A stretch of 63,442 bases of DNA from Lachnospiraceae bacterium UBA4711 (GCA_002404515.1 DHJV01000111.1:1-63442), one strand, 5' to 3'; shown: positions 1,067 through 20,356, numbered from the stretch's first letter. Notes: a model not told the origin generated them from the letters alone. Program-made: numbers and translations.

Positions 1067-1672
1067 ATGTTAATGAAGAGGAAAATTATGGTGCGAATGA
1101 AGAATAAAAAAGGAAAAGAGAATATTATTTTTGCGATTATAGGATTGATAGGGATTATTCTGGTAATTGTTGGTGTGGTTATATTGTGGGGAGGGAAGAG
1201 AAAAACTGACACATCAACATACGGAATTACAGAACTGACAAATTCTGAGATTACACAAGAAACAGAGACAGCAACTGTTACAGTAGAAATAGAAACAACA
1301 GAAGATATGACAACGGAAGGGGAGACAACGGAGGTTATAACAACAGAGATATTTGGACAGGAAATATCCAACTCGCAGTCTTCAAAAGAATTAGATAGGG
1401 ATCAAACTTTGGTGGCAATCGAGAGATTCTGTAGGGAACAAAATCCTGATTTAAATAATATGAGTCAAGATGAGTATTCTTTTTATTGGGAACTGACATC
1501 AGAAACAGAACAGGAATATGTAGTCACATATCGCTCTTATACAGGAGCTTTTACATACTTCCATGTAAATCGAAGCACCGGAAATGTCACAACCATGGAA
1601 TATGTACCAGGGATAACGGATGGAGAAGTTCCAGGAACAGAAGAATTTCAGATTTGGGATTATATTCAATAA
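1067..1672 (+). CDS. Single-pass membrane protein: N-terminal TM, Thr/Glu-rich linker, unknown extracellular domain
   Basis: Basic N-terminus, hydrophobic 'IIFAIIGLIGIILVIVGVVILW', TE-rich linker like neighbouring FHA receptors; start uncertain. Confidence 0.7.
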   Translation: MLMKRKIMVRMKNKKGKENIIFAIIGLIGIILVIVGVVILWGGKRKTDTSTYGITELTNSEITQETETATVTVEIETTEDMTTEGETTEVITTEIFGQEISNSQSSKELDRDQTLVAIERFCREQNPDLNNMSQDEYSFYWELTSETEQEYVVTYRSYTGAFTYFHVNRSTGNVTTMEYVPGITDGEVPGTEEFQIWDYIQ

Positions 1673-1705: not shown

Positions 1706-4487
1706 ATGTCTGATAGATTATGCATGGGATGTATGGAAATTTATGACGATAAATATGATATTTGTCCGTATTGTGGTTATGAAGAAGGAACTCCGGCAAA
1801 AGAAGCAATTCATCTTGCACCAGGAACTGTGATTGAGAATAAATATATTGTTGGGCAGTCTATAGGAAATGGAGGATTTGGCGTTACCTATATTGGCTGG
1901 GATGCAGTGTTAAATCAGAAAATTGCAATCAAAGAATATCTTCCAAGTGAGTTTTCAACCAGAGCCATGGGCGTTTCAGATGTAACAATATTTACAGGAC
2001 AAAAAGAGGAACAATTTTTAAGTGGTGTAAATAAATTTGTGGATGAGGCACGGAGACTGGCAAAGTTTAAGGGTGTTTCAGGAATCGTGGACATACATGA
2101 TACATTTCAGGCGAATAATACTGCGTACATTATTATGGAGTATATTGATGGCGAGACACTGAAAGAAAGACTGGAGCGGGAAGGAAAAATCCCATATGAA
2201 GAAGCTTTAAAAATCATGAAGTCAGTCGTGGAAGCGTTGAAGGAAGTACATAAAGAGGGAATTTTACATCGAGATATATCGCCGGATAATATCATGATAT
2301 CCAAAGATGGTGATGTAAAAATCATAGATTTTGGTGCAGCAAGATATGCAACGACAGGACACAGCCGCAGTTTGTCAGTTCTGGTGAAGCCAGGATATGC
2401 ACCACAGGAGCAATACCGAAGCAGGGGCGATCAGGGAACATGGACGGATGTGTATGCCTGTGCGGCAACATTATATAAGATGATTACAGGTGTCACACCA
2501 GAAGATTCCATGGAGCGGGAATTGAAGGATACGCTTGTGGCACCGTCAAAGTTAGGGGTAAAAATACCAAAAGAATATAGAAAATGCAATCTTAAACGCA
2601 ATGAATCTGCGAATTGAGGATCGGACGCAGACGGCAGAAGACTTTGAAAATGATTTATTTTCGGACAAGGATGTAAAACGGAAAAAGGTTTATATAAGGA
2701 AAATGGATATAGGCAAATGGCCATTATGGGTAAAAATTGCTTCAGGAATCGGAACAGCGGCGGTTGTTACATGTATTGTGTTGCTGTTGACGGGAGTAAT
2801 TCGAGTCTCAGACATGTTCCATGGAGATAGCGGAAATCTCTCGGATGGATATGTGTACGCACCGAATATTATCAATACGGAGTTAGATGAGGCAGAGAAG
2901 AAGGTTTCAGAGGCGAAGCTCATCATGCAGATCACGGATAAGAAAAATGATTCCGTAATACCTGAAAATCTTGTGTTGACGCAAAATATTCCAGGCGGAG
3001 AAGTTGTGAAGGAAAAGACTGTCATGGCGATAGTCGTGAGTGCCGGAGAACAGGTTACATATATGCCGGACATCGAAGGATTGGAAAAAGATGCAGTTGT
3101 AGATTTGTTGATCAATATGGGATGGACGCAGGAGGATATCACGATAGAGGATAAAGAAAGTGATGTTGCACCTGGGTATGTAGCAGAGCTGGCAGTTGCA
3201 GACGGAAAAACCATTGCCTGTGGGGATGAAATTGCTGTTGGAACGAAAATGGTGATTTATATATCAACTGGTCGAAAAGATTACGACAATCAGAAACAGA
3301 CTACGGTTCCGGATGTATGCAACAAAAGCTGGGGAGAAGCTATGCAATCACTTGCATCGTCTAAACTCTACATATATAAACTGGCGACAGAATACAGTGA
3401 TACTGTTCCAAAAGGAAATATCATCAGTCAGAATCCAACGGCTAAAGAGACAATGACAGAAGGCGAAAAGGTTGGTGTTGTTGTCAGCCTTGGAAAACAG
3501 GAAGATGCAAAGATTCATGTACCAGATGTGCAGTATAAGAGCCGTGAACAGGCGATTGCAATCTTAGAGGTACAGGGACTTAAAGTGCAAACACAGGATG
3601 AAGAGAGTGACACGGTACAAAAGGATCATGTAATCAGACAGAGTGTAGAAGCAGGAACAGAGGTTGCAGGTGGAACAACGGTTATAATCTATATCAGTCT
3701 CGGAAATCCGGATGCTGTTTTGCAGTATGAGGGTACGACGGATGAGACAACAACGGAGAAAGGCAGTACGACGGAAAAGAAGGAGACAACCGAAAAACAG
3801 GATACGACAGAGCAGAACGATGACGCTGCCAATAAGGATGGAATTCCGAATGTTGTAGGTTTGCATTATTATGCTGCCAGAGATAAATTGTGGGACTGTG
3901 AACAGATAGATAATATATACGGTGGAAATATAGTGTTACTAAATGCTTACAAACCAGGAGTAGCAGATGGAATAGTATTTGCACAAAGTCCGGGATCACA
4001 GTTTAAAACGTATATTACTCAGCATTATAGTAGTGAATTTGCGAGTCCGTATCTTAATGACGACTGGTCAGATTGTTATATTTTATATGTGTCAGATAGT
4101 CGAGGTTGGACGTATTACCGATATCGGGATGTAATATCTTATGAAGAGACATCTTCAACAAACAATGTGCCACCGGATGGTTTTGAGTATTATAAAAGTG
4201 AAAATAGTGATACATACGGAGACTGGTCAGCATGGTCCGAATGGGGTGTCGATCCCGTGGCTGCGAGTGATGTATGTAATGTTGAACAGGATTCGTCAAC
4301 AGGGACGATATTGTACCGTTATCAGACGAGAGAAAAGACAACGACTACAACATATTATTTTAGAAAACCGATATATGGCGAGTGGTCAAGTTGGAGTGAA
4401 TCCCAATATTATCCAAGTGATACAAGGCAGGTAGAAGAACGATATGAAGAACATATGATACATCCAGCTTTGGGATTTTTTGCTTAG
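1706..4487 (+). pseudogene. Zn-ribbon/Ser-Thr kinase/TM/PASTA-repeat receptor kinase split by a +1 frameshift (ORFs 1706..2617 and 2601..4487)
   Basis: Intact GNGGFG, AIKE, HRDISPDN, DFG. Removing one A from the A4 run at 2569-2572 gives PKNIENAILNAMNLRIEDR, collinear with PKNKENAIMNALNIRIEDR of intact paralogue 14222..17197. Could be an assembly error. Confidence 0.85.
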
Positions 4488-4654: not shown

Positions 4655-5929
4655 ATGCAGGTAACAATTTGTTATGGCAACCAGAATTTGGGAAGTTATG
4701 ATCTGGAACAATTTCATAAAGAGGTAGTAAGCTTTGGCAGGCAGCCAGATAATGATATCGTGTTAAATTATGATTTCGTATCACGTGTACATGGTGTGTT
4801 TTATAAGGAAAATGGTATCTGGTATGTGCAGGATCTGAACAGTAGTAATGGTTTAATGAATAATAGTAAATTGTTAAAAAATCAAGAATTACAAGTGGGA
4901 GATATTTTGACAATTGATAGTAAAAGAAAGGAATATATACAAATTGTTGTGCAAGAAACAACAGATTCGGTTAATGACGAATCAATGCTTCGGTCAAAAA
5001 TGTATAAATTAATCTGGAAAGTTGCAATTCTATTATTATTAATGGGTGGAGTTTTAGGAGTTGTTAGATATAGGAGCAAGAACGCAGATAGACAAAGTAG
5101 TGATCAATCTAATATTGAAGGTACAGAAGGGGAAGATAGCGTAGCTTCATTACCAGATACCGAAGAAGAACAAAATGGGGGAGAAGCGGAAGCGGACCAT
5201 TATTTAAAAGTAAAAAGCGAATATTATGATTCTAATGATGAGTATACTGGAAAATGGATTTATGAATATGATTCAAATTATAATTTAAGTAGTATTAACT
5301 CTTATACAAAAGATGATCAATTAGAGGCTTCGGAAATATATGAATATGATTTGGATGGGAATACTACCTGTGAGAAATCTTGTACATATTATTCTGGTGA
5401 AACAGAAGAAACAGACACCATTTATATATATGAAAATAATAAAATGGTAAAATATTATGATCAAAAAATAGGTGGAGAGGATGTGGGATATCATGTTTTA
5501 GAATATGGAGATTCTCCGTATGCAATTAAGGAGACATATTATGATTCTATGGGAAATACTAATAGTTGGAATGAGTATGAATATGATGACAATGGAAATA
5601 ATATAAAGGATATATATTGGGTCGAGGACGGAAAGCAAGGTTATAGGTTGTGTTCAGAGACAACGAAGAAATATGAAAAGAATCAACTTATAGAGACGGA
5701 GGAGAATGTATACGATAAAGATGGTACAGTATATGAAAACGAGAGACAAACATATGAATATGATGAATACGGAAATGTTATTGAAAATGTCATTTATAAA
5801 AATGGTGAGTTGTCCAGAAGCTTTAAATGGCAGTACATATATAACGAATTTGGATTAATAGAAACAAGAAGTTATTATGTAGATGATAAGCTTTCATGGG
5901 TTGAAAAAAATGAGTATTCACTAAAGTAA
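4655..5929 (+). CDS. FHA-TM receptor with extracellular YD-like (YEYDxxGN) repeat domain
   Basis: N-terminal FHA (SFGRQ...SRVHG...DLNSSNG), one TM, repeats YEYDSNYN/YEYDLDGN/YEYDDNGN/YEYDEYGN; ATG 4655 after GGGGAGG. Confidence 0.85.
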   Translation: MQVTICYGNQNLGSYDLEQFHKEVVSFGRQPDNDIVLNYDFVSRVHGVFYKENGIWYVQDLNSSNGLMNNSKLLKNQELQVGDILTIDSKRKEYIQIVVQETTDSVNDESMLRSKMYKLIWKVAILLLLMGGVLGVVRYRSKNADRQSSDQSNIEGTEGEDSVASLPDTEEEQNGGEAEADHYLKVKSEYYDSNDEYTGKWIYEYDSNYNLSSINSYTKDDQLEASEIYEYDLDGNTTCEKSCTYYSGETEETDTIYIYENNKMVKYYDQKIGGEDVGYHVLEYGDSPYAIKETYYDSMGNTNSWNEYEYDDNGNNIKDIYWVEDGKQGYRLCSETTKKYEKNQLIETEENVYDKDGTVYENERQTYEYDEYGNVIENVIYKNGELSRSFKWQYIYNEFGLIETRSYYVDDKLSWVEKNEYSLK

Positions 5930-5972
5930 AAATATGTTTTTAGGGCACTGTTTATGAGGTAAGAGAGAAAAG

Positions 5973-6918
5973 ATGGAGTCAATGTATTATCTGCAAACAG
6001 GAACAATCATACATGGAAGATATGTGATACAGACCGTTTTAGATGAAGATGGATATGAAATTATATATAGAGCATGGGACAACATGCTTCAGGAAGAAGT
6101 ATGCATAAAGGAATATTATCCAGGAGGAGTCCGTATGTCGTGTAGATGAAAATAGTCAGGTACGTGTATATGCAGGCAGGCAAGGAAAGTATAAGCGAGG
6201 AATCGACCGTTTTTTATGGAAAGCAAGAAGATTGGCAAAACTTGATTCGGTAGAAAACATTGTTGAAGTGTATGATTATTTTGAAGAGAATAATACAGCA
6301 TATATAGTCATGGAATATGTGCAAGGTAAAACTCTCAAGAGGTTTGTAAAAGAAAATGATGGGAAAATCAGTGAAGACGTGGCAATTCATATTGCATGTT
6401 CTGTTTTAATTGCATTACAACATGTACAAGATGTGGGAATTATACTCGGAGACATTAGTCCGGATCATATTTATATATGTGAAAATCTACAAGTTGAATT
6501 AATTGCCCTCGGTATATTAACACAGGAAATTATTGAAGAAAGAAGAGGAGGAGATGCGATTTTTTTGCCAGGTTTTGAACCTCCAGAACAGTATGCACAC
6601 ACAAATCGGCAGGGGGCGTGGACAGACGTCTACTCGGTTGGCGCGATCGCGTACTATATGCTAACAGGGATAATTCCTCCGTGTTGGTTAGACAGAATAC
6701 AGATGGTAGAAATGTTGGATCCATTGGAAGAAATTGTCCCTTCAATTTCAAAGAATTTCAGCGATGCAATCATGAAAGCAATGAGTTTAAATACACGGGA
6801 TCGATTCTCGTCAGCAAAGGATTTTTTGAAAGCGTTGTTAAACGGCGAGGAGTCCCAAATAAAGAAGAAAAAAGTGCGCAGAAAAAAAGCGTTTAAGTCG
6901 AAAATCAATCGGAATTGA
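5973..6918 (+). pseudogene. Degenerate Ser/Thr pseudokinase, frameshifted (+1) near 6123
   Basis: 5973..6149 encodes a kinase N-lobe (YLQTGTIIHGRY...AWDNML...IKEYYP). The next frame continues VCRVDENSQ...RFLWKARRLAKL into ORF 6232..6918. G-loop reads LDEDGYE, HRD reads LGD, DFG reads ALG. Confidence 0.8.
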
Positions 6919-6945
6919 TCTATTTGATGGATTCCGATTGATTTT
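6901..6945 (+). terminator. Rho-independent terminator overlapping the pseudokinase stop
   Basis: Perfect 15-bp inverted repeat AAAATCAATCGGAAT / ATTCCGATTGATTTT. Confidence 0.7.
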
Positions 6946-6958
6946 TTTGCCATAAAAT

Positions 6959-7029
6959 ACCAATTTTGACGAAGTTTGAGTCAATTCTGCATGGCGATAA
7001 AAAATGTGATTTTTTTGTGATACTATAAT
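6959..7029 (+). promoter_or_regulatory. Putative LytTR-type activator box plus extended -10
   Basis: ACCAATTTTGAC (6959, identical to 526) and GTCAATTCTGCA (6980), 21-bp period; TGaTACTAT with -10 at 7021 (overlapping TATAAT at 7024). Confidence 0.6.
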
Positions 7030-7071
7030 GAACGGACATTTTGAACCTGAAAAAGGAGAATGCTTGGAAAT

Positions 7072-8382
7072 ATGCAAATTGTTATTAAGTATGCAGATAA
7101 AAAAATAGAAAGTCACATTTTAGAACAGTTCAATAAAGAAGTTGTAAGCTTTGGAAGACAGCTGAACAATGATATTATACTTGATTTGGATTTTATATCG
7201 AGAATACATGGCGTATTTTTTATGGAAGACGGAACATGGCATGTACAGGATCTGGACAGTACGAATGGATTGCTTGTAAATGGAACCTATATTGACCAGC
7301 CATATGCGATCAAAGAGGGGGATTGCATTTGTATACAGAGAAAAGATGGGGAAGAAAGTATAAGCATATATATCAGCGAATCAGAGCAAGCGAAGCTGGA
7401 TAAGGCCAGATCCCCTAAGAAGCTGGTTATTATTTTGAGTGTGATATGTGTATTGCTGGCAGCATTTATAGTTTCGTTGATTATTTACGCAACACACAGA
7501 GATTCGTCAGAGAAGGAAACGGCGACACCAACGGATGCTTCAACGGAGACAGAGGGAGCAACGGAAACAGAGGAACCAACAACTGTGACAACAACCGAGG
7601 CGGAAACTACGACGGAAGAAGTACAAGAAACAACGGAAGAAACAACAGAAGAAACGGTTACAACAGAAACCGTACAGAATGAGGTTTCGGAAACAGATTT
7701 CCCGGTAGAAAATAGTGTAGGCGGGTTGAGTTATTCGGAGGCGGCTAAGGATCAAGACCAGCATTTTTTCGTGGAACATAATGACTGCTATTATCCAATG
7801 ACAAACAGCGAATGCTTTGATGAGAACATGGTATCGTTAAAAATCAGGTTTGTGGGAGAAAATTTTGAATATGCCCAAGTGCATGTCGGTGACAAAATTG
7901 TTGGATTTGATGGTATGCATGGATTTAAATCCATATCAATTATTAATAGTGAAGGATATTCTGTTCCTCAGGAATTCGTTACATATGATGATGGTACAGT
8001 AGAGTTTCACAAGAGCAGTTTTAATTCATCCTTATACTACGACAAGTGTTTTATTACGACGAATAAAATATTTAAAATTAATGATGAGGATGCAAATAGG
8101 ATAACAGATTATGTAGAAATTGGAGATGGATGGCCTACATACAAATTTTTGTATTATGCAGAGCCAACGAATATTGAATTAACATATTATAAGAATTACG
8201 AGCAGGTAGTAAAAACAGTTTCTGTAGATAAGAAATGTTTTTTGTTGGGAGATAAGTATAAGGCTGATTACCAAGAGGCTCCAGAAGGGTATTTTTATTA
8301 TGACACATCGAATCTTCCACTTGGGAAATATGTAATTAATGCGATGGCAGGCGTGCAGTTTGCTATTGAAGTAGTTGAATAA
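7072..8382 (+). CDS. FHA-TM receptor with Thr/Glu-rich stalk and unknown extracellular domain
   Basis: FHA (VVSFGRQ..NDI...SRIHG...DLDSTNG), TM 'LVIILSVICVLLAAFIVSLIIYA', TE-rich linker; start chosen by homology to paralogues. Confidence 0.85.
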   Translation: MQIVIKYADKKIESHILEQFNKEVVSFGRQLNNDIILDLDFISRIHGVFFMEDGTWHVQDLDSTNGLLVNGTYIDQPYAIKEGDCICIQRKDGEESISIYISESEQAKLDKARSPKKLVIILSVICVLLAAFIVSLIIYATHRDSSEKETATPTDASTETEGATETEEPTTVTTTEAETTTEEVQETTEETTEETVTTETVQNEVSETDFPVENSVGGLSYSEAAKDQDQHFFVEHNDCYYPMTNSECFDENMVSLKIRFVGENFEYAQVHVGDKIVGFDGMHGFKSISIINSEGYSVPQEFVTYDDGTVEFHKSSFNSSLYYDKCFITTNKIFKINDEDANRITDYVEIGDGWPTYKFLYYAEPTNIELTYYKNYEQVVKTVSVDKKCFLLGDKYKADYQEAPEGYFYYDTSNLPLGKYVINAMAGVQFAIEVVE

Positions 8383-8416
8383 AAACTTGTTTTTAAACAG
8401 TGGAGTAACGTTTGAT

Positions 8417-10141
8417 ATGAAATCAATAGTAATTTATTATGGCAACCAAAAAAGCGAAAGCTATAATCTGGAACAATTTCAAAAGGAAGTCGTAAGCTTT
8501 GGAAGACAGCCGGACAATGATATTGTACTTGATTTGGATTTTGTATCGAGAATCCATGGTGTGTTTTATATGGAAGATGGCATATGGTATGTGCAGGATC
8601 TAAATAGTACGAATGGGATATTGGTGAATGGAAATCGCATAGAGCAATATGCGATTCAAGAGGGAGATTGCATTTGCATACAGGGAAAAGACAGTGAAGA
8701 ATGTATAAGTATATATGTTGGAGGGGAAAAAGAAAACAAGTCAAAAAAGAAACTGGTTATTATTTTTAGTGTTGCGTGTGTACTGTTGGCAGGATTTATA
8801 GTTTCATTGATTGTTTATGCAATGCATAGAGATTCGTCAAAAAAGGATACTGCAACACCGACGGATGCTTCCACAGTGGATGAGACGGAAGTGGAGTCCG
8901 AAGAAACTACAACTGTGACAACCACAGAAGGGGAAACGACTACAGAAGAAATACCTGAAGATATTGGATTTTCTTATGGGAAGCTACAAAATACAACGTT
9001 TATTTTTTCTAGTGGAGCAGGTGCATGGGAGACCAATTTATCCGTTGATGCAGATGGGAATTTCTCAGGTATGTTTCATGATAGCGAGATGGGAGATACC
9101 GGAGAAGGATATCCAAGTGGATCAATCTATTTTAGTGAATTTTCCGGACGGTTTGGACAGTTAGAAAAGGTGGATGATTACATCTATGCAACGACGATAG
9201 AATCGTTAGAGTATGTAAATGAACCGGGAACGGAAGAGATAAAGGATGAAATGCGATACATGTATAGTGAAGCATACGGACTCGAAAATGCAGGTCGAAT
9301 TTTGTTTTATCTTCCGGGAAGACCTTTGGACAGCTTCTCAGAGGAAGAACGGTCGTGGATGAATTTATATCTTATGAATAATTATGGTGGTAAGCTCCCG
9401 ATGGTTTTACTTTGCAATGAGAATGAAGAGCAGGTTATGCAGGGAAATAGCAGTTTGACAGCGGAATATCAGCCATATATAGATGTGTTAGAAAGAGAGG
9501 CGGATAAAATTTCTGCATATACAACGGGATATGGGAATGCCTCAATATGTTATATAGATGTTACGGGAGATGAGAAACCGGAACTGTTGTTTATGACAGA
9601 AAATTCTGAAACTGGAGGTGGAGATTTAAATATTTACACAATTGAAAATGGTAAAGAAAAGCAAATCTGTTTCTTGGAAAACTTAAATATTCCAGTGGCT
9701 GGTGGAACAGAGTACTGTGTGTTTCGCAAAAAAGATGATTTTCGATTATATGCAATATCTGAAACCTACGATGGTAATGGCTCACGTTCTACTTTTTATC
9801 GCTTTGATTTAGCGGATAATGGTTCATTGGTTGCGGAGCAAGTAATGTGTTGGAATGATAGTGGAGAAGTGAGTTCGTATATGGACAATGGTATTTATGA
9901 AATAGTATGTACAATTGGTGAAAAACAAGTCACTTCAGAAGAATTCATGGAAAATGTAATTTTATTTGTCAAAGATATGGAAATGGTTGCCTTAAATACA
10001 TATCGGGAGTTTGATTTAAGTCCATATATGCAACCGAGACCGACAAGTAGTATATTGCCAGCAATTTCAAAATCTGAGCATATTTATGTGGAAAGTTATG
10101 ACGCAGAGTATGGTATATATAGAGGCGATTTAGTAGATTAA
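8417..10141 (+). CDS. FHA-TM receptor with Thr/Glu-rich stalk and a different extracellular region
   Basis: FHA, TM and 'RDSS.K.TATPTDAST' nearly match 7072..8382; sequence after that is unrelated (FSSGAGAWET... domain). Confidence 0.85.
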   Translation: MKSIVIYYGNQKSESYNLEQFQKEVVSFGRQPDNDIVLDLDFVSRIHGVFYMEDGIWYVQDLNSTNGILVNGNRIEQYAIQEGDCICIQGKDSEECISIYVGGEKENKSKKKLVIIFSVACVLLAGFIVSLIVYAMHRDSSKKDTATPTDASTVDETEVESEETTTVTTTEGETTTEEIPEDIGFSYGKLQNTTFIFSSGAGAWETNLSVDADGNFSGMFHDSEMGDTGEGYPSGSIYFSEFSGRFGQLEKVDDYIYATTIESLEYVNEPGTEEIKDEMRYMYSEAYGLENAGRILFYLPGRPLDSFSEEERSWMNLYLMNNYGGKLPMVLLCNENEEQVMQGNSSLTAEYQPYIDVLEREADKISAYTTGYGNASICYIDVTGDEKPELLFMTENSETGGGDLNIYTIENGKEKQICFLENLNIPVAGGTEYCVFRKKDDFRLYAISETYDGNGSRSTFYRFDLADNGSLVAEQVMCWNDSGEVSSYMDNGIYEIVCTIGEKQVTSEEFMENVILFVKDMEMVALNTYREFDLSPYMQPRPTSSILPAISKSEHIYVESYDAEYGIYRGDLVD

Positions 10142-10145
10142 ATTT

Positions 10146-10213
10146 GTCAAATATAACAATAAACTATATAAAATTTGCAATGACGATAGCTTAAAAATTT
10201 TGCCGCTTATTAT
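10146..10213 (+). promoter_or_regulatory. Putative LytTR-type box (weaker) plus -10
   Basis: GTCAAATATAAC (10146) / TATAAAATTTGC (10167), 21-bp period; TATTAT at 10208, same offset as the other three boxes. Confidence 0.4.
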
Positions 10214-10246
10214 GAATATAATTCAAACGTATGAAGGAGGTTTCAG

Positions 10247-10999
10247 ATGATTACATATAAAATATATTCGGATATAGGAAAACGTGAAGTGAACGAAGAT
10301 AGTGTTGGTGAACAGGAAAAGGACGGAAATTATTTGTTTGTTTTAGCGGATGGCCTGGGTGGACATGGACACGGAGAATGTGCATCAAATCTGGCTGTGA
10401 CAACTTCTTCGGAAATGTTCCATGGGGAGTATTTTCAGGGGAAAAATGAAAAAGAATTTCTGGCACAATGCTTTGACTGTGCGCAGGATATTATCACGAT
10501 GTCACAGAAGGAGACACGCGAATATGCAGATATGAAGACAACGATGGTGCTGCTTCTGATTTCGGGAAATCGTGCTTATTGGGGACATATAGGAGATTCC
10601 AGATTATATTATTTTAAGAAAAATAAGATGGTTACGCGGACGCTGGATCACAGTGTCCCACAAATGCTTGTCAGCACTGGAGAAATCAAAGAAAAGGATA
10701 TTCGTGGACATGAGGATCGGAGCAGGTTGCTTCGGGTTGTGGGGAGTCCGTGGATGAATGGACATGCGTATGATATCTCGGAAGGGATAGATTTAAACAA
10801 GTCACAGGCTTTTTTACTTTGTTCGGATGGATTCTGGGAGCAGATCACGGAAAAAGAGATGATGCAGTGTCTGAAGAAGGCGGATACGGTAGATGCGTGG
10901 CTTGATCGCATGGTTGAGATAGTGAACGAGAACGGAAAAGGGTCGGATATGGACAACAATTCGGCGATTGCGGTATGGGTAGAGCCGGAGAATAAATAA
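10247..10999 (+). CDS. PP2C/PPM-family Ser/Thr phosphatase
   Basis: GKREVNED, VLADGLGGH, TT, HIGDSR, DHS, LLCSDG, DNNS motifs; AAGGAGG RBS. Confidence 0.95.
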   Translation: MITYKIYSDIGKREVNEDSVGEQEKDGNYLFVLADGLGGHGHGECASNLAVTTSSEMFHGEYFQGKNEKEFLAQCFDCAQDIITMSQKETREYADMKTTMVLLLISGNRAYWGHIGDSRLYYFKKNKMVTRTLDHSVPQMLVSTGEIKEKDIRGHEDRSRLLRVVGSPWMNGHAYDISEGIDLNKSQAFLLCSDGFWEQITEKEMMQCLKKADTVDAWLDRMVEIVNENGKGSDMDNNSAIAVWVEPENK

Positions 11000-12038: not shown

Positions 12039-14207
12039 ATGAAGAGAAGATGTCTGAATTGTATGAAAGAATTTGGAATACCGGAAGGACAAGAGCAGAA
12101 TCATTTTGCTTGCCCCTTTTGCGGATATAGAGAGGGAACGCCGCCGAAGGAGATAACGTATTTGTATCCAGGAACGATTTTGCAGAATCGTTATATTATC
12201 GGAACCACTCTCGGAGCAGGTGGATTTGGAATTACATATAAGGCGTGGGATACAACGTTAGAGATGGTTGTTGCGATCAAAGAATATTATCCGGCAGGTA
12301 TGGTACAGCGTGTGCCGGGTGATCCAAATCTGATCGTGTATGGAGGCAGACATCAGGAAGAGTTTTATTCCAACCTGGAGCGTTTCCTGGAGGAAGCGCG
12401 AAAGATGGCAATATTTGAAAAAAGTAAAAATATTGTCCATGTTGAAAATCATTTTGAAGCAAATAATACGGCGTATATCGTCATGGAATTTCTTGATGGA
12501 ATTTCCGTAAAGGAATTTATGAAACAGGAAGGCGGTAAGCTGGATATTGAAACAGCGTTAGAGATTGCATTTGCAGTTTCAGAAGCATTGCAGGAAATTC
12601 ACAATGCATCAATCCTGCATCGGGATATCAGTCCGGATAATGTATTTTTGTGTGAGGGAAACAAAGTTAAAGTCCTGGACTTTGGAGCTGCAAGATTATC
12701 GGATACAGAGAAGGAAGTGACACGTTCAATTATTTTGAAACCAGGATTTGCGCCACCGGAACAGTATCAGACAAAGAGTAAGCAGGGACCATGGACGGAT
12801 ATATATGCGCTGTCTGCGATGTTGTATTACTGCATAACCGGTGTCATGCCAGACGAGAGTACAAATCGAAAGATAGAGGATACGGTTGTTGCTCCGAAAG
12901 AATTAGATCCGTCAATACCGGATTATATCAGCGATACGATTATGCGTGGAATGGCAGTCAATGAGGCGCTGCGGTTTCAGAATATTGGTGAGTTTCAGAA
13001 AGCACTTTTAAAAGAAAAAAAGGTTGTTGACGATAAAACAGAGCTGAAAAAAAGAAAGAGAAGACGTGTGTTTACGATAGCAGCTGCGGTTCTTTTGCTG
13101 GCAGTCGGAGGGTTCGCGGCATGGCGTATCTATGACAGCAAGGATCCGGTTCTGAATCCGGCGACGATCACAGTCTGGGTTGCATATTCCGGAGATGAGG
13201 ATGCGGATTCAGCGAAACAAATGATGGAAGAGATGTCGGATATGTTCCAAAGTGATCAGGCTGCCGTAACAGTTTCCGTAGAAGCAATTCCAGAGGAACA
13301 ATATGCTGACAGACTGGAACAGGCAAAGGCAGATGGAACGATGCCAACAGTATATCAGGCGGAGTATGCATCAGAAGAGATACAGAATTCGGCTGCATCT
13401 GTAAAACCGGTTTATAACAGTATGGATAATCTGTCGGATTATTACTTCCTGAAATCATATAAAAAGAGGTTGATAGAGGAAAAAGAGGTTCCACTTGGGT
13501 TCAACATTCCGGTCGTGTATGTGCGCCGGTCGGATACGGTAGATGCATCTTCTTTTGAACTGAGTCGAATATCAGACATACAGGAATCACAGTATTATAT
13601 GGATTCTGCATATGCAGATATGCTGATCAACACTTTGGGAGGTAGTTATCATTATGAAAATGGTCTGGTTATGGATAATGCCGCAAAGGAACTGATACAG
13701 GATGTAGTGAAACATACGAAAAGCAATATAAAACTTGAAAATAGTGAAAAGGCGATGGATGGGTTTGCGAATGGAACGGTTTCTTATTATCTGGCATCTG
13801 TGCGGGAATTGCAGACATTTAATAAAAATGTAGTTGGATTGTATGAGATGCGGCCGATTCAGTCAAATACCTTGTGTGGCCGATTCACGAATGCGTATAG
13901 CATCAGTGGAAGTGCCAGTAAAGATGAGATTGCGGCTGCCAGAGTCTGGCTTCGGTACATGCTGGAGGAGGGACCGCAGAAGACCTATCATCTGGTGCAT
14001 CGACATGCGATACCACTGCAGAAAGATGCATACAGAGTATATGTGGATAATAACAGTAAGCTAAGTTTGATTGATGAATATTTAGATAATCTGAAATTCT
14101 ATCCGGAGAATGAAAAAAAGCTTGAAACACTGACGGCGGATTTGTGGAAGCAGGTTGTGCTAAAGCGAACAAAAACCATTGACGAATGGTGTGAGGAACA
14201 AAAATAA
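12039..14207 (+). CDS. Zn-ribbon/Ser-Thr kinase/TM/extracellular solute-binding-protein-like domain
   Basis: CLNC...CPFC; GAGGFG, AIKE, HRDISPDN, DFG; TM after KKRKRRR; 'ITVWV...VTVSVEAIPEEQYADRLEQAKADGTMPTVY' resembles family-1 sugar-binding proteins (SBP call less certain). Confidence 0.88.
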   Translation: MKRRCLNCMKEFGIPEGQEQNHFACPFCGYREGTPPKEITYLYPGTILQNRYIIGTTLGAGGFGITYKAWDTTLEMVVAIKEYYPAGMVQRVPGDPNLIVYGGRHQEEFYSNLERFLEEARKMAIFEKSKNIVHVENHFEANNTAYIVMEFLDGISVKEFMKQEGGKLDIETALEIAFAVSEALQEIHNASILHRDISPDNVFLCEGNKVKVLDFGAARLSDTEKEVTRSIILKPGFAPPEQYQTKSKQGPWTDIYALSAMLYYCITGVMPDESTNRKIEDTVVAPKELDPSIPDYISDTIMRGMAVNEALRFQNIGEFQKALLKEKKVVDDKTELKKRKRRRVFTIAAAVLLLAVGGFAAWRIYDSKDPVLNPATITVWVAYSGDEDADSAKQMMEEMSDMFQSDQAAVTVSVEAIPEEQYADRLEQAKADGTMPTVYQAEYASEEIQNSAASVKPVYNSMDNLSDYYFLKSYKKRLIEEKEVPLGFNIPVVYVRRSDTVDASSFELSRISDIQESQYYMDSAYADMLINTLGGSYHYENGLVMDNAAKELIQDVVKHTKSNIKLENSEKAMDGFANGTVSYYLASVRELQTFNKNVVGLYEMRPIQSNTLCGRFTNAYSISGSASKDEIAAARVWLRYMLEEGPQKTYHLVHRHAIPLQKDAYRVYVDNNSKLSLIDEYLDNLKFYPENEKKLETLTADLWKQVVLKRTKTIDEWCEEQK

Positions 14208-14221: not shown

Positions 14222-17197
14222 ATGGCTGATAAGTTATGTATGGGTTGTATGGAAAACTATAATGATAAATATGATGTTTGCCCATATTGTGGTTATGTGG
14301 ATGGAACAGCGCCGAAAGAAGCGTATCATCTTATACCGGGAACCATAATTGAAGGTAGATATATTGTGGGAAAGGTAATTGGAAATGGTGGGTTTGGTGT
14401 AACATATATAGGATATGATGCTGCGTTAAATCAGAAAATTGCCATTAAGGAATACCTACCGGGAGAGTTTTCAACCAGAGCTATGGGGTCACCGGATGTG
14501 ACAGTTTTCTCTGGAGAGAAGGAAGAACAGTTTGCAAGTGGAATCATAAAGTTTGTTGAGGAAGCAAGACGGCTTGCGAAATTCAAACATACGCCGGGAA
14601 TCGTGGATATCCACGATAGTTTTCAGGCGAATCATACGGCGTATATCATTATGGAATATATTGATGGAGAGACGTTGAAAGAAAAACTGGAACGGGAAGG
14701 TAGGATTCCGGTTGATGAAGCACTGAATATTATGATGCCAGTGATAGGGGCATTAAAAGAAGTGCACAAAGAGGGGATTTTACACCGGGATATTTCTCCG
14801 GATAATATCATGATCTCGAAGACTGGTGAAGTGAAGATCATTGATTTTGGTGCGGCACGATTTGCGACAACAACGCATAGTCGTAGTTTGTCTGTGCTTG
14901 TAAAGCCAGGGTATGCGCCGGAAGAACAGTATCGGAGCCGTGGGGATCAGGGAACATGGACGGATGTGTATGCCTGTGCGGCAACGTTGTATAAGATGAT
15001 CACGGGTGTGACGCCGGAAGATGCGATGGAACGTCGCAACAAAGATACATTGCTTCCACCATCCAAACTGGGAGTTAAGATCCCGAAGAACAAAGAGAAT
15101 GCGATTATGAATGCTTTGAATATTCGCATCGAGGATCGTACACAGACGGCAGATGATCTGGAAGCGGATTTGTTCGGTGACCAGGAAGTTAAGCGGAACA
15201 AGATTCATTTAAAGAAGATGGATATTGGTAAATGGCCAATCTGGCTGAAAATTATGTCGGGCATGGCGGCCGCTGCAGTGTGTGTATTTATTGTATTGCT
15301 GGTGACGGGCGTTATTAAGTTTGCAGATTTGTTCCATTCTAACCGGGGGCAGTTGGAAAATGGATATGTATATGCACCGGAAGTAGTAAACATTGCTTTG
15401 GCAGAGGCAGAAAAGACGGTCGGTGATGCTAATCTGATCACACAGATTACTGATAAGCAGCATTCCGATGAGATTGCAGAGGATATGGTGTTGCAGCAGA
15501 ATATTCCATCTGGAACAGTTGTACAAGAAAAAACGGTAATGGAACTGGTAGTAAGTGCCGGATATGAGAAGGGATATATGCCAGATATTGTCGGATTATC
15601 CAAGGATGAAGTGATGAAATTGCTTTTGGATATGGGATGGGATGAGAGTGCAATAACTTTTGAAGATGTGGAAAGCGAAATTGCTCCTGGTTATGTTGCA
15701 AAACAGGATGTGGAAGAAGGAACAGCGGTTAAAATCGGTGAAAAGATAACGATTTATCTGTCAAAGGGTGTTGATGGATATGACACGAACAACAATACAA
15801 AAGTTCCCAATCTTGTAAAAGACAAATGGTCTGATGCACAGAGCAAGGTAAAGGAAGCAAAATTGTATTTGTATAAATCTGGAACGGATTATAGTAACAC
15901 AGTTCCAAAAGGGTGCGTTATATCTCAGAATCCCGAAGCGGACACAGAGGTAGTTGAAGGATCGAAAGTAGGTGTGGTTATCAGTCTTGGAAAGCAAGAG
16001 GATGCAATGGTACATGTACCGGATGTCCAATATAAGAGCAAATCAGAGGCAATTGCATTGCTGCAGGCACAGGGACTTGAGGTGCAGACAAAGAATGAGG
16101 AAAGTGATTCTGTACAGAAAGATCATGTTATTCGTCAGAGTGTTGCAGCAGGAACAGAAGTGCAGGTTGGAACAACTGTGGTAATTTATATAAGTTTGGG
16201 AAATCCGAATGCAGTAATTACGTACGATCCAACGACAACACAGGCAAATGTGACAACTGAAAACAGCACAACGGAAAAAACAACAGCTTCAGCGGATAAT
16301 AAACCTTCAGATTCTTCGGGAAAGACTACGACGCAGGTAACTACAACAGAGACAAAGCAGGAGGAAGAGGTAGTCGTGAATCCGGTTACAACGACGGAAG
16401 CTCCACCACAGCCAGATCCCGAAGCAGGAAAGATTAAGGTCCCAAATCTGGTAGGAAAAACAGAAGCAGAGGCAAGAAAGAGCCTTAGCGATAAAAAGCT
16501 TTCTGCAGGAGCAGTTACATATCAACATAAAGAGGGCGCCACAGATGGAACGGTGCTTTCACAGGGAATAGAGCCAGATACAAAAGTTGCAAAGGAAACA
16601 GTTGTTAATTTTGTTGTTTGTGATAATACAAAGGTTAAATATTATCGCTATAGAGATGTGAAATCTTATGATGAGAAAACATCAACTTCAAGTGAAACGC
16701 CTCCTGCTGGCTATGAATATGTAAGAAGTCAGAACAGTACAAGTTATGGAGATTGGGGTGGCTGGTCTGATTGGGGAAAGAATGCAGTGGGATCAAGTGA
16801 TACTTGTGAGGTTCAAACAGAATCTGGAGCGGATTGTGGTTGGTATTATAATCCGCAGAATGGCACATTTAATGACAAAAATGTTAATGGAGTATGTACA
16901 AGACAAGAATACATTGCACCGTGGTCTTCGTTATCGCAAATGAATCCATTCCAGTGGGTTACAGGCGGAACCGAACGGTGGTGCTTAAATGGAGGTATTG
17001 TGTATCGACATGTTTCTGGTACGGGTGAATGGACGTGGTCAGGTACTATATATCGGTACAGACAAAGAAGCAAAACAGTTACGACTACTTATTATTTCCG
17101 AAAACCTGTTTATGGTTCGTGGAGTTCGTGGAGCACGAGTAAACCAGCATCGTTGTCGACGAGAGAGATAGAAACGTCGGAGGAATATAAATACTAA
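14222..17197 (+). CDS. Zn-ribbon/Ser-Thr kinase/TM/multiple PASTA/Trp-Arg-rich C-terminal domain
   Basis: CMGC...CPYC; full catalytic motifs; TM; about five VP[DN]-type PASTA repeats; C-terminal YRYR and WxxWSxW motifs. Confidence 0.93.
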   Translation: MADKLCMGCMENYNDKYDVCPYCGYVDGTAPKEAYHLIPGTIIEGRYIVGKVIGNGGFGVTYIGYDAALNQKIAIKEYLPGEFSTRAMGSPDVTVFSGEKEEQFASGIIKFVEEARRLAKFKHTPGIVDIHDSFQANHTAYIIMEYIDGETLKEKLEREGRIPVDEALNIMMPVIGALKEVHKEGILHRDISPDNIMISKTGEVKIIDFGAARFATTTHSRSLSVLVKPGYAPEEQYRSRGDQGTWTDVYACAATLYKMITGVTPEDAMERRNKDTLLPPSKLGVKIPKNKENAIMNALNIRIEDRTQTADDLEADLFGDQEVKRNKIHLKKMDIGKWPIWLKIMSGMAAAAVCVFIVLLVTGVIKFADLFHSNRGQLENGYVYAPEVVNIALAEAEKTVGDANLITQITDKQHSDEIAEDMVLQQNIPSGTVVQEKTVMELVVSAGYEKGYMPDIVGLSKDEVMKLLLDMGWDESAITFEDVESEIAPGYVAKQDVEEGTAVKIGEKITIYLSKGVDGYDTNNNTKVPNLVKDKWSDAQSKVKEAKLYLYKSGTDYSNTVPKGCVISQNPEADTEVVEGSKVGVVISLGKQEDAMVHVPDVQYKSKSEAIALLQAQGLEVQTKNEESDSVQKDHVIRQSVAAGTEVQVGTTVVIYISLGNPNAVITYDPTTTQANVTTENSTTEKTTASADNKPSDSSGKTTTQVTTTETKQEEEVVVNPVTTTEAPPQPDPEAGKIKVPNLVGKTEAEARKSLSDKKLSAGAVTYQHKEGATDGTVLSQGIEPDTKVAKETVVNFVVCDNTKVKYYRYRDVKSYDEKTSTSSETPPAGYEYVRSQNSTSYGDWGGWSDWGKNAVGSSDTCEVQTESGADCGWYYNPQNGTFNDKNVNGVCTRQEYIAPWSSLSQMNPFQWVTGGTERWCLNGGIVYRHVSGTGEWTWSGTIYRYRQRSKTVTTTYYFRKPVYGSWSSWSTSKPASLSTREIETSEEYKY

Positions 17198-17219: not shown

Positions 17220-17921
17220 ATGTTAAGAATTGGCATTTGTGATGATTCGCAACATGACAGAGATTTAATCCGTGAAACAGTTGGAAAGGCTCTTTTTGAT
17301 TATGAAGAAATTGAGATTACAATCTTTACATCGGGAGATAAAGTTATCAAGTCAATAGAACAGGGGCAGTTTGATTGTGAATTGCTTTTGTTGGACATTA
17401 TGATGGATCCTGTTAATGGCATGCAGGTTGCTGAATATATTCGTACAAATAAGGTAGATGTGGATATTATTTTCATTACACGGTCTACGCAATATGTATA
17501 TCAGGGGTATATATATAAAGCTTTTTCCTATGTGCTAAAGGAACAAGCGGGTAAAGACATGAGTCGAGAAGTGCGGAGATATGTAGATGAATTGAATGCT
17601 TCTGAGGAGTGCCTGAATGTAATTTCAAAGGGGAAAGCCAGAAGAATTCCTATTAATGCCATTCATTATGTTGAAAGCAACGGACGGTTGTTATTGTTAC
17701 ACTTAGAAAAAGAAGACGTGCCATTTTATGCAAAAATGGCAGAGATTGAAGTCGTTTTGGGTGAACGAGGATTTATTCGGACTCATCAGAGTTTTATGGT
17801 TCGTAAAGCAGATATATGTAGCATGACGCGTGAACGGGTAAATTGTGGAACATATGCTGTACCAATCAGTAGACGTTATTATCAGGAAATTAGAGATCTT
17901 TTCGATGGAGAAAGGAAATAA
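17220..17921 (+). CDS. LytTR-family response regulator (REC + LytTR), no cognate histidine kinase in window
   Basis: ICDD, LLLLDIMM (phospho-Asp), FIT, YVLK; LytTR FIRTHQSFMV...PISRRY. Confidence 0.93.
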   Translation: MLRIGICDDSQHDRDLIRETVGKALFDYEEIEITIFTSGDKVIKSIEQGQFDCELLLLDIMMDPVNGMQVAEYIRTNKVDVDIIFITRSTQYVYQGYIYKAFSYVLKEQAGKDMSREVRRYVDELNASEECLNVISKGKARRIPINAIHYVESNGRLLLLHLEKEDVPFYAKMAEIEVVLGERGFIRTHQSFMVRKADICSMTRERVNCGTYAVPISRRYYQEIRDLFDGERK

Positions 17922-18363: not shown

Positions 18364-18407
18364 GATCTCAACACGAAATAAGAACCAATATGAGGGAGGT
18401 CATTCAT

Positions 18408-20276
18408 ATGAAGAAAAAGGGATTAAAAAGATTTATCAGCAAATGTCTGGCAGCGTGTCTGACAGTAACGATTATGGCAACTGGTGGGTTTGGAACAATG
18501 GTTTCCAAGGCTGGGCAGAGAGAAGATGTAGTAGCACTTGCAAAATCACAGGTTGGATATCATGAGAAGGCGTCCAATGCAAGTCTGGATGATTACACAG
18601 CCAACAGCGGTTCCGGTAATTACACGAAATATGCAAGAGACCTGGGGGTTAGAAATGGTCAGCCATGGTGTGCATATTTTGTATGGTGGGTGCTTCAGAG
18701 CAGTGGTGTGGATTCAAATGCATATCCAAGAACTGGATGGGTTCCAACGATTGCACAGTGGTTTAAAAATGCAGGATTATATCGGGCATCTGGAGGTTCA
18801 TATATGCCTAATCCAGGAGACATTGTTTTGTTTGGAAGTGATTATAGTCATGTTGGAATGGTTGAATATGTATCACAGGGGTATGTACATTGTATAGAAG
18901 GAAATTCCAGTGATCGTGTACGACAGACATCTTACAATTTGTATACTTCCTCTTATATGAGAGGATTCGGAGCTGTTAACTACAGACCATCTGATTCAAC
19001 AAAACCGACAGTCACAGATGTGAAGGTGACGGAGCAGACAGCAAATACTTATACCGTGCAATGTACTGTTACAGACGATGTAGCAGTTGCAAAGGTACAA
19101 TTCCCGACATGGACAGAAAAAGATGATCAGGATGATATTCGTTGGGATACTGTTACACAGTCCGATAATGGCGTATATACATACACAGTGAATATTGCAG
19201 ATCATGGTAATGAAGAGGGTGTTTATAACACACATATCTATGCATATGATACGAGTGGAAATGTATCTGATTGCCATACCGTACAGGTTACAATGGATAA
19301 GACAGCACCTTCATTTTCTGTAGTAGAGATTCGCGAGATCACAACAGAAGGGTTTAAGCTTCAGTTTGAGGCAAGCGATAATTTGACAGGAGTCCAGCAT
19401 ATTGGATGTCTTGCATATACAAATGGAAATGAATCATCCATTCCGGGAAAATGGTATGAGGATGGAAAGAATTTTGCAACTAATGTCGGTGGCGACAAAT
19501 GGGAATATGAAGTTAAGATTGCGGATCACGACAACACACGGGGCAGCTATGATGTAAAGCTTTTAGCATATGATAAATGTAACAATGTGTGTGAGTATAT
19601 TATCAAAGATATTGTAGTACCAGAGCCTGAAAATGTTGTGAGTGGATCTGTAGCAGGAGATATCGCAAATGATCCAACAATCTCAGAGACACCAGATTAT
19701 AACACAGGTAATGAATGGAATCCGGAGGATGCAACATCCACAGATGGACAGCCGGAGGATACAACGACAGAAGTGCAGGAACCGGCACAGAATGATACAA
19801 CTCCAGACGATACAACAGGAGATACCAATATTGTGATCGATACAAACATTAATGTAGAAAACAATTACACAACGATTACAAATAACTATATTTCCAATAA
19901 CACATACATTCAAAACGGAGTTACTTATACAGCATCAGATATTCCGGTATTAGACAGTGTTTCGGTCGCAGATACTTATATTGCTCCAACATCTACACAG
20001 GTTGGAACAAATCCATCGCAGACAGTGGAGCAGCTTATGGACACCAATCCGGCACAGGCAGTTTCAGGAGCTTTGACACAATATGCAGGAAACTGTGCAC
20101 AGTCTGCACAGGAGAATCCGTCGAACACGACAGAGGAGATTGAAGGAGAACAGGAACAAACAGAACTTGTAAATACATTGTCACAGTTGCAGGCAGAAGC
20201 CGGCGAGAAGACAAGTGTATCATATACAACAACGATTGATGGAAGAAAGGTGACATTTACAATTACCTTGAAATAA
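18408..20276 (+). CDS. Secreted CHAP-domain cell-wall hydrolase with GBS Bsp-like repeats and low-complexity tail
   Basis: Signal peptide; QPWCAYFV (Cys), SHVGMVE (His), IEGNS; 'VQFPTWTEKDDQDDIRW...HGNEEGVYNTHIYAYD'; GGGAGGT RBS. Confidence 0.88.
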   Translation: MKKKGLKRFISKCLAACLTVTIMATGGFGTMVSKAGQREDVVALAKSQVGYHEKASNASLDDYTANSGSGNYTKYARDLGVRNGQPWCAYFVWWVLQSSGVDSNAYPRTGWVPTIAQWFKNAGLYRASGGSYMPNPGDIVLFGSDYSHVGMVEYVSQGYVHCIEGNSSDRVRQTSYNLYTSSYMRGFGAVNYRPSDSTKPTVTDVKVTEQTANTYTVQCTVTDDVAVAKVQFPTWTEKDDQDDIRWDTVTQSDNGVYTYTVNIADHGNEEGVYNTHIYAYDTSGNVSDCHTVQVTMDKTAPSFSVVEIREITTEGFKLQFEASDNLTGVQHIGCLAYTNGNESSIPGKWYEDGKNFATNVGGDKWEYEVKIADHDNTRGSYDVKLLAYDKCNNVCEYIIKDIVVPEPENVVSGSVAGDIANDPTISETPDYNTGNEWNPEDATSTDGQPEDTTTEVQEPAQNDTTPDDTTGDTNIVIDTNINVENNYTTITNNYISNNTYIQNGVTYTASDIPVLDSVSVADTYIAPTSTQVGTNPSQTVEQLMDTNPAQAVSGALTQYAGNCAQSAQENPSNTTEEIEGEQEQTELVNTLSQLQAEAGEKTSVSYTTTIDGRKVTFTITLK

Positions 20277-20328: not shown

Positions 20329-20356
20329 TTTAGGGAAAGTGAGGAAATCCGGGTGT

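Follow-up and report, generated by a model that had tools for sequence, protein, structure and literature searches.

The genes described here lie in a 63,442-nt stretch of DNA from Lachnospiraceae bacterium UBA4711 (GCA_002404515.1 DHJV01000111.1:1-63442), which at its full length is called the window. They form an array of three genes on the + strand, each encoding an FHA domain, a transmembrane (TM) helix and a C-terminal part predicted to be extracellular, and they are named by their start positions: 4655 (open reading frame (ORF) 4628), 7072 (ORF 7060) and 8417 (ORF 8375). The reading frames span 4628/4655-5929, 7060/7072-8382 and 8375/8417-10141, and ATG starts at 4655, 7072 and 8417 are consistent with the alignment of the paralogues. 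Positions 1-31,000 carry + strand genes at a GC content of 34-43%, and the window beyond 31,000 carries housekeeping genes on the - strand at 44-48%. Encoded in the housekeeping part are PolC, IspG, RseP, Dxr, CdsA, UppS, Frr and PyrH, as well as a PrkC-RsgA-Rpe-thiamine pyrophosphokinase operon that is located away from the array (PrkC at 61177-63396). Positions 1-31,000 are an accessory island of about 31 kb, and the chromosome is that of a Coprococcus-like Lachnospiraceae; among named organisms, Coprococcus hominis has the closest match to the 8417 protein (83% identity). By Pfam, the island holds five Hanks-type kinase genes and one decayed kinase gene, two PP2C phosphatases, two LytTR regulators and one VWA-FHA protein. 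About eleven FHA proteins are found in the island in total, including an ABC exporter with two FHA domains.

The protein encoded by 4655 (4655-5929, 424 aa; Pfam FHA E 2.9e-16) consists of an FHA head (about 4655-4960), one hydrophobic helix taken as the TM segment (about 5009-5065) and a YD-like tail that begins at residue 182 (about 5198-5926), as delimited by Pfam and hydrophobicity. In the case of 7072 (7072-8382, 436 aa; Pfam FHA E 1.4e-15), the FHA head and TM helix (about 7429-7485) are followed by a tandem-repeat stalk rich in threonine and glutamate (T/E; about 7486-7716) and an all-beta tail (about 7717-8379). A repeat search placed tandem DNA repeats of this stalk at 7541-7657. The longest protein, encoded by 8417 (8417-10141, 574 aa; Pfam FHA E 3.2e-18), has an FHA head, a TM helix (about 8756-8812), a stalk (about 8813-8956), a module A (about 8957-9451) and a hypervariable module B (about 9452-10138). 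The stalks of 7072 and 8417 are both T/E-rich and built from short tandem DNA repeats. A common TM segment and RDSS.K.TATPTDAST stalk had been proposed for these two genes in an earlier reading of the sequence alone (the sequence-only reading), and from head to stalk the two proteins are indeed 70% identical over 184 aa by BLASTP (74% over 548 nt). A fourth gene of the island, 28328 (28328-29260, + strand, 310 aa; Pfam FHA E 5.1e-18), joins a head of the same subfamily to a tail in which four hydrophobic segments were found, in agreement with the four TM helices claimed for it earlier.

Sequence comparison groups the heads of 4655, 7072, 8417 and 28328 as a clear subfamily, beyond chance and beyond generic FHA likeness. 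Over about 115 aa, identity to the 8417 head is 67% for 7072, 54% for 4655 and 48-50% for 28328, as compared to 36% and 33% for the first and second FHA domains of the ABC exporter gene 26007. The 28328 head is 48-51% identical to the 4655 and 8417 heads and 40% identical to the 7072 head. BLASTP E values among the heads range from 5e-79 to 8e-19 (7060/8375 5e-79; 4628/8375 2e-36; 28328/8375 3e-27), whereas the remaining FHA domains of the window match these heads at E 1e-4 to 1e-5 or not at all. The sequence-only reading had described a near-identical head; the heads do form one subfamily (48-67% aa identity), but near-identity is true only of the motif KEVVSFGRQPDNDIV, which is exact in three of the four (4655, 8417 and 28328). 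It had also assigned the same head to 28328 and to the first FHA domain of 26007. The assignment holds for 28328; the first FHA domain of 26007 is the nearest outgroup of the subfamily and forms the outgroup clade of the head tree. At the nucleotide level, the paralogous heads of the window are 74-80% identical.

All four heads pass the 20.7-bit gathering cutoff of the Pfam FHA family PF00498 (60.1 bits for 4628, 57.9 for 7060, 66.3 for 8375 and 65.7 for 28328). The Gly-Arg, Ser-x-x-His and Asn-Gly loops of FHA domains provide the residues that bind phospho-threonine. Residues G29, R30, S44, H47, S64, N66 and G67 are invariant in all six FHA domains aligned, and the head aligns with the GR, SRRH and SLNG motifs of GarA. 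Compared with solved structures, the 8417 head matched GarA best (E 3.6e-8), followed by the first FHA domain of Rv1747 (1.3e-6) and OdhI (6e-6); EmbR was also matched. The heads keep the canonical phospho-threonine-binding residues and are predicted phospho-threonine readers. Among curated NCBIfam equivalogs, none was reached by any head; the top match, FhaB/FipA (NF049868), stayed below its 125-bit cutoff at 47.5, 54.1, 63.2 and 50.2 bits.

The C-terminal parts are unrelated to one another, as had been claimed: no pair among eight tail segments reached E < 0.01 in an all-against-all BLASTP comparison. Pfam placed nothing above cutoff on eight tail segments in a search at E <= 1. The YD-like character proposed for the 4655 tail is weakly supported. 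Its Atlas neighbours are RHS/YD clusters at 0.85, which serves as a lead only, and a repeated YEYD..GN motif is visible, but the RHS_repeat family PF05593 matched only a single stretch, at E 0.06 and 14.2 bits against a cutoff of 22. The 7072 tail is modeled as an all-beta domain (pLDDT 82, pTM 0.79) for which a fold search returned 0 matches at E <= 0.001 in the PDB and in the viral database BFVD. Only 14 relatives of this tail were found among 1.84 billion representatives. In each the tail stands at the C-terminus, the carriers being a Zn-ribbon-TM protein, lipoproteins that also have Ig and DUF6273 domains, and other membrane proteins. The model of the 8417 ectodomain is beta-rich and less certain (pLDDT 70.8, pTM 0.48). 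Its beta-propeller-like matches in the PDB (integrin alpha, nucleoporins) were set aside at a TM-score of only about 0.2. Module A also occurs in lipoproteins carrying DUF1311/LprI (44% identity to protein P0067), and modules A and B together follow a TM helix in some proteins that have a Zn ribbon or sigma-70 regions; they also occur in P0088, which has sigma-70 region 4. Elsewhere, then, these modules come after a lipoprotein signal peptide, or after a TM helix whose preceding N-terminus is Zn-ribbon- or sigma-70-like, and they are probably extracellular and put to sensory use. The 7072 tail, modules A and B, and the tails of the database proteins P0087 and P0064 are candidates for new extracellular domain families.

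Exchange of these outer parts was assessed from five loci in three assemblies collected by a genome scan, to which the locus-level comparison is limited. One locus, L002, agrees with the window at 99-100% nt identity across most of 10.3-18 kb and at 95-100% across 1.6-4.8 kb. In L002, the 4655 protein is the same up to residue 66 or so, just past the SxNG loop of the FHA domain; the rest of the FHA domain, the TM helix and the ectodomain are unrelated. At the DNA level the two are 99% identical to nt 4851 (breakpoint at about 4851-4853), and no homology is seen from there until 5985. A further replacement in L002 affects module B of 8417 (nt about 9450-10250), which is only about 70% identical inside flanks of 99-100%. 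Identity to L002 also dips, less strongly, at the stalks and within the C-terminal part of 2601. The locus L001, about 93% identical to the window, has a different tail ORF directly upstream of its 8417 orthologue; the contig begins there, with the head outside it, and this tail ORF had no match in the window or among the collected proteins. L005 is a more distant relative (about 73% nt identity) and carries two tandem genes after the FHA-ABC gene, as compared to one in the window. These tandem genes have sister heads (support 100/98) with different tails, one of four TM segments and the other a DUF4234 tail of three.

L005 is collinear with the island and has the same FHA/kinase/ABC set, although its record is titled uncultured Bacteroides sp. 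The bin label may be wrong, because the content looks Lachnospiraceae-like. At another of the loci, the 28328 orthologue is broken into two ORFs (L003, 9848-10950).

Database proteins extend the comparison; the member counts given are those of clusters in the search tables. P0065 (428 members) is the 7072 orthologue, with 96% identity. P0066 (306 members) has a 7072-type head, TM helix and stalk joined to a YD-like tail, and this tail is 90.5% identical (220/243) to that of 4655 in the window, even though the heads differ. Between P0065 and P0066, position 2 is a mismatch and positions 3-172 match; the two diverge within the stalk, from position 173 on. In P0064 (17 members), a 7072-like head, TM helix and stalk bear a third, unrelated tail, and in P0114 and P0115 the YD tail stands behind a short basic N-terminus and a TM helix only, with no head. 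P0087 (341 members) is the L002-type allele of 4655. The head of 4655 found 75 proteins among 285 candidates and the rest of the protein 3 among 1355; neither search returned the combination of 4655 head and YD tail, or a donor of the 4655 tail block (second half of the FHA domain plus TM helix). A head tree of 27 rows required 10 changes among eight tail labels, as compared to a minimum of 7, and identical heads carry different tails; its rows were hand-picked (5 from the window, 7 from the loci and 15 database proteins, only 5 of these from the 60 AB-type representatives). The heads of P0049 and P0064 are hybrids.

These comparisons indicate that the array is not invariant across strains: L002, L001 and P0064/P0065/P0066 carry different tails, and module B falls into three allele classes. 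The sequence-only reading had proposed a constant inner module with exchanged outer modules, and the same head is indeed found with different cassettes in close relatives. It had further suggested recombination joints at the FHA domain or the stalk, which agrees with the joint at about residue 66 of 4655 in L002 and that at position 173 in the stalk of P0065/P0066. As read from the alignments, the extracellular parts are independent cassettes, the same cassette occurring on different heads and the same head with different cassettes, and the joints fall in the conserved FHA-coding core or in the repetitive stalk.

For 8417, synonymous (dS) and nonsynonymous (dN) divergence was estimated by the Nei-Gojobori method, with dS values above 1 regarded as saturated. 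Between the window and L002, the head has dS 0 and dN 0.004, whereas module B has dS 1.39 (saturated), dN 0.19 and dN/dS 0.14. Between the window and L001, the head has dS 0.51, dN 0.074 and dN/dS 0.14. Module B of L002 and that of L001 differ almost nowhere (dS 0.02, dN 0.015; dN/dS 0.7 from almost no differences). These contrasts in dS between head and module B show that 8417 is a mosaic whose module B alleles are ancient and under purifying selection. Among distinct alleles, dN/dS is 0.12-0.14 for module B and 0.05-0.16 for module A. In 62 AB-type proteins, identity of module B to that of the window is 99% in 1 (P0004, 271 members), 70-75% in 48, 61-62% in 11 and 40% in 2, which are distant orthologues; module A is 94-98% identical in 60 of the 62. 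By aa identity, module B thus occurs in three discrete allele classes (99, about 71 and about 61%).

P0102 and P0104 are shortened 8417-type proteins in which the reading frame changes, either past the stalk or near the start of module A. P0104 comprises 18 member sequences on 11 contigs. The two may reflect assembly errors or recurrent inactivation.

Positive selection was rejected as an explanation, since dN/dS is well below 1 in every segment between distinct alleles. The sequence-only reading had invoked diversifying selection; taken to mean fast amino-acid change, this finds no support, and the module B values describe old alleles moved by recombination. Recent gene conversion within the genome was not seen in the window genome either, the best paralogue identity being 80% over 186 nt. 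The array contains only two short hairpin-type inverted repeats, with no long ones and no repeat pair flanking the tails, and Pfam scans of the island ORFs showed no invertase, recombinase or reverse transcriptase. A shufflon or a diversity-generating retroelement is therefore unlikely. The reading of the locus as a defence system was likewise rejected; PADLOC returned only generic kinase, PP2C and ABC matches and weak matches in the stalk regions of 7072 and 8417.

The array is surrounded by genes for kinases and phosphatases, all on the + strand. Upstream, a kinase (1706-2617) and a TM-PASTA part (2601-4487) are encoded in two overlapping frames (1706-4487), which together are a paralogue of 14222. 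Between array members lies a decayed, frameshifted Hanks-type kinase gene (5974-6918; ATG at 5974, main ORF 6232-6918) that has LGD in place of HRD and ALG in place of DFG, and whose Pfam Pkinase match begins at profile position 53. In L002, this gene has lost 548 nt (window 6205-6752). A PP2C phosphatase (10247-10999; PP2C_2 E 1.3e-17) directly follows the array, is 98% conserved in L001 and L002 and is likely an eraser in the same putative phospho-threonine circuit. Further downstream are a Hanks kinase with a TM helix and an SBP domain (12039-14207), a Hanks kinase with a TM helix, five PASTA domains and a distal tip (14222-17197), both assigned by Pfam, and the ABC exporter with two N-terminal FHA domains (26007-28301; FHA x2 113 bits, ABC_tran E 2.7e-30, ABC2_membrane E 2.1e-20). 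The 1706/2601 pair and 14222 are 82% identical in the kinase domain and 45% identical in the PASTA part. The split of 1706/2601 is no one-off sequencing error, because L002 has the same split; it may represent a pseudogene, a pair of separate genes or a programmed frameshift.

Hanks kinases usually have HRDxKxxN in the catalytic loop, and the island kinases have Ser in place of that Lys. The four intact kinase domains of the island (1706, 12039, 14222 and 23109) read HRDISPDN, whereas the housekeeping PrkC (61177-63396) reads the usual HRDIKPQN. The proteins of 1706, 12039 and 14222 begin with a zinc-ribbon-like CxxC...CPxCG segment; 23109 and PrkC are without one. In the Zn-ribbon kinases of the island, the Asp of HRD, the Lys of AIK and the DFG motif are all retained, and the activation loops are Thr-rich. 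Kinases 12039 and 14222 are candidate sources of phospho-threonine docking sites. Compared with L001, kinase 14222 is 90-100% identical over residues 1-800 and only 18-34% identical over residues 801-991 (nt 16622-17197). The pattern of a constant inside and a swapped tip is thus not limited to FHA proteins. In the L001 tip (about 9000-9640), the flanking W-rich framework is kept and the new core looks by eye to be of a peptidoglycan-binding type.

The explanation that we favor, with moderate confidence, is that the array encodes a paralogous family of bitopic, signaling-linked proteins, each with a cytoplasmic FHA domain, one TM helix, an acidic T/E-rich tandem-repeat stalk and a predicted extracellular C-terminal domain, the last of which is swapped as a cassette. 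Exchange would proceed by homologous recombination, in which the partner is incoming DNA or a tandem paralogue; the conserved head or stalk would anchor the exchange on the 5’ side, and the conserved gene downstream would do so on the 3’ side. Selection on the exposed tips, balancing or frequency-dependent, would keep several alleles in the population. Thr-phosphorylated sites on the Zn-ribbon Hanks kinases encoded alongside, or on substrates of these kinases, would be bound by the FHA heads, with the PP2C enzymes as the erasers. Each array protein would serve the kinase/PP2C network as an accessory subunit, sensor or adaptor, that links it to one extracellular binding specificity. The direction of signaling may be either that of an outside-in sensor or that of inside-out control of a surface protein. 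If the heads do dock on the island kinases, the array represents a modular way to give Ser/Thr kinases alternative extracellular inputs.

Several observations weigh against this explanation. Conserved residues and gene neighborhood are all that points to docking on the island kinases, and the ectodomains belong to no ligand-binding family recognized by Pfam or fold searches. Of the kinase genes, one inside the array has decayed, and a second is split. The low dN/dS gives nothing that points to positive selection on residues, and no recent intragenomic exchange is visible among the paralogous heads of the window. Some pairs of head and tail are old and stable: P0062 and P0063 match 8417 over their full length at 46-48%, and in P0101 a diverged 4655-like head bears the L002-type tail. 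Swaps are therefore occasional, not rampant, and the locus-level comparison comprises three assemblies only, two of them metagenome bins.

A wider version of the favored explanation is rather doubtful. It would make the locus part of a population-level ‘plug-in’ receptor system in which cassettes recombine among FHA anchors, kinase tips, lipoproteins and sigma-factor-like transducers, with distal alleles such as the module B classes and the YD tail kept by frequency-dependent selection for self/non-self or phage/host recognition and read out via FHA docking on Thr-phosphorylated Hanks kinases. If true, bacteria would possess a counterpart of polymorphic immune or kin receptors, one coupled to Ser/Thr phospho-signaling. 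In either form, the locus gives a concrete and testable case in which one phospho-threonine reader is combined with varied outer domains, mapped joints and discrete allele classes.

A less probable but quite possible alternative is that the proteins work from the inside out, as surface proteins of adhesin or wall-binding type that are controlled via the FHA domain and whose tails vary to escape phages or host antibodies. Long T/E stalks would push the tips through the wall, the tails are found on lipoproteins with Ig and DUF6273 domains, and discrete, ancient alleles occur in the most distal module beside a conserved proximal one. Because the tip of the PASTA kinase 14222 is swapped too, variation tracks exposure and not the FHA head, which also counts for this alternative. 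Tips targeted by phages or antibodies would make the locus a marker of surface variation between strains in an abundant group of human gut commensals. However, modules A and B on sigma-factor-like and Zn-ribbon membrane proteins look like parts of signal transducers, and the fold searches gave no match to known adhesins or phage receptors. Discrete allele classes with purifying selection within each would also suit homotypic kin recognition, in which allele-specific outer modules bind like to like between cells and report contact via the FHA/kinase network. A constant anchor with a variable domain resembles TraA of Myxococcus xanthus, a surface receptor whose variable domain occurs as discrete specificity alleles, as described in the available parts of PMC3820747 and PMC6626042. 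This likeness is one of layout, and TraA comes from another phylum with another type of envelope. To our knowledge TraA has no FHA or kinase link, and we know of no contact-dependent social behavior in gut Lachnospiraceae; kin recognition appears quite unlikely.

The heads could instead belong to a structural scaffold of an envelope machine, a ring or platform that takes no part in phospho-signaling. YscD of the type III secretion system, GltG of the gliding machinery and EssC of the type VII secretion system have an N-terminal cytoplasmic FHA fold, a TM helix and an outer domain, and the array proteins have the same order. The Pfam model of the cytoplasmic YscD domain (Yop-YscD_cpl, PF16697; cutoff 33.2 bits) is passed by three heads (8375 46.4, 4628 36.4 and 28328 36.0 bits) while 7060 stays below it at 30.9 bits, and NCBIfam gave weak GltG and TagH matches. 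For every head, however, the PF16697 score is below the PF00498 score, and the NCBIfam matches reach 32-36 bits as compared to a cutoff of 650 for GltG. No secretion or motility genes were found in the island, and none for secretion among 50 ORFs scanned across the window. The heads have lost none of the phospho-threonine-binding residues, kinase and PP2C phosphatase genes surround the array, and mutually unrelated tails on one head are ill-suited to a fixed machine part, all of which makes a scaffold very improbable. It is just as hard to credit that nothing dynamic takes place and that an old paralogue family, shaped by ancient domain shuffling, only appears to vary through artefacts of metagenome assembly or binning. 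The divergence of the paralogous heads (only 74-80% nt identity) fits such an account, as does the nature of L001, L002 and L005, which are metagenome bins or uncharacterized isolates, and the title of the L005 record names another phylum than its content suggests. Against it, the variant proteins are clusters of many members (P0065 428, P0066 306, P0087 341 and P0004 271), the flanks of replaced segments are 99-100% identical and collinear within single contigs, the breakpoints lie at meaningful domain borders, and the three module B classes recur across 62 proteins.

Among known systems, likeness extends to membership only for the FHA domain itself and for the layout of 26007. In the parts of PMC3138270 and PMC8339232 available, Rv1747 of Mycobacterium tuberculosis is described as an FHA-bearing membrane protein encoded beside the Hanks kinase PknF and regulated by Thr phosphorylation. 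Gene 26007 has the Rv1747-like layout, with two FHA domains, ABC_tran and ABC2_membrane in one polypeptide. The array proteins differ from Rv1747 in having one FHA domain, one TM helix and an ectodomain but no transporter, and they are multi-copy with tails that differ between close relatives. GarA/OdhI, FhaA and FhaB/FipA are phospho-threonine readers of Hanks kinases that are soluble or have a C-terminal FHA domain without an ectodomain, and we know of no cassette polymorphism in them. Among proteins of solved structure, GarA/OdhI match the sequence of the array head best, and FhaB/FipA is the top NCBIfam match, at 47-63 bits against 125. Unlike YscD, GltG and EssC, the array proteins lack cognate machine genes, keep the phospho-threonine-binding residues and have mutually unrelated tails. 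PASTA kinases (PrkC, StkP and PknB) resemble them in being bitopic, with a conserved cytoplasmic signaling module and extracellular sensor repeats. Since the array proteins have no catalytic domain, unlike these kinases, they could only read phosphorylation and not write it.

Polymorphic toxins such as Rhs and CdiA have a constant N-terminal part and C-terminal cassettes exchanged by recombination, as set out in the available part of PMC3482391. The array shares this arrangement, and one of its tails is YD-like, but its constant part is cytoplasmic and membrane-anchored. No toxin domain, immunity gene or secretion signal was found for the array by Pfam on the tails, by PADLOC or among the neighbors; the genes that follow the three array members are the kinase remnant, the next FHA gene and the PP2C gene. 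FHA-anchored proteins with exchangeable ectodomains were not described in the literature searched, which lay outside subscription journals. In the passages of an eLife article available (PMC7159879), FHA is named only as a sporadic effector domain of vWA systems, and the available passages of the bSTK atlas preprint do not cover such proteins. FHA adaptors and Hanks kinases of Firmicutes are mostly known from one housekeeping PASTA kinase, whereas gut Clostridia have many extra kinases and FHA proteins.

A small gene near the start of the window (1067-1672, + strand) encodes a bitopic protein with a TM helix at residues 20-38, a T/E stalk (stalk repeat at 1295-1352) and no FHA domain. It had been said to look like a headless member of the array. 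A TM helix, a T/E stalk and a small C-terminal part are present, but similarity to the array is confined to the low-complexity stalk, and its Atlas neighbors have no FHA domain and no Pfam family. By analogy of architecture it is a possible headless analogue, not a demonstrated relative. Its L002 orthologue (L002 1093-1545) stops after about 150 codons, as compared to 201.

The island also contains a phage-type holin of the Hol44 family (242-511), a stand-alone LytTR domain (661-1014), a LytTR response regulator (17220-17921) and a CHAP/Bsp-repeat wall hydrolase (18390-20276). Together, the holin, LytTR and wall hydrolase genes hint at a link of the island to regulated lysis or wall remodeling. 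At the border of the low-GC island and the housekeeping part, the sign of the GC skew flips, and two PD-(D/E)XK (PDDEXK_2) transposase-like genes lie there on the - strand (31093-32526 and 34002-35153).

Four further genes (20321-20950, 25268-26014, 29283-30287 and 30372-31043) have a short N-terminal segment in common; compared with 30372, for example, it is 58% identical in 29283 (31 aa) and 48% identical in 25268 (27 aa). Among the orthologues of these genes in L005, the segment reads as zinc-ribbon-like. Three of the four have a C-terminal FHA domain, and one is CinA/PncC-like. In the VWA-FHA protein (20914-23115), hydrophobic segments at residues 19-37 and 582-600 enclose T/E tandem repeats and the VWA domain, and the FHA domain is C-terminal. 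Because the VWA domain lies between the two hydrophobic segments, it may be extracellular, with the layout of the array inverted. The repeat stretch of this protein (residues 51-100) differs in L003.

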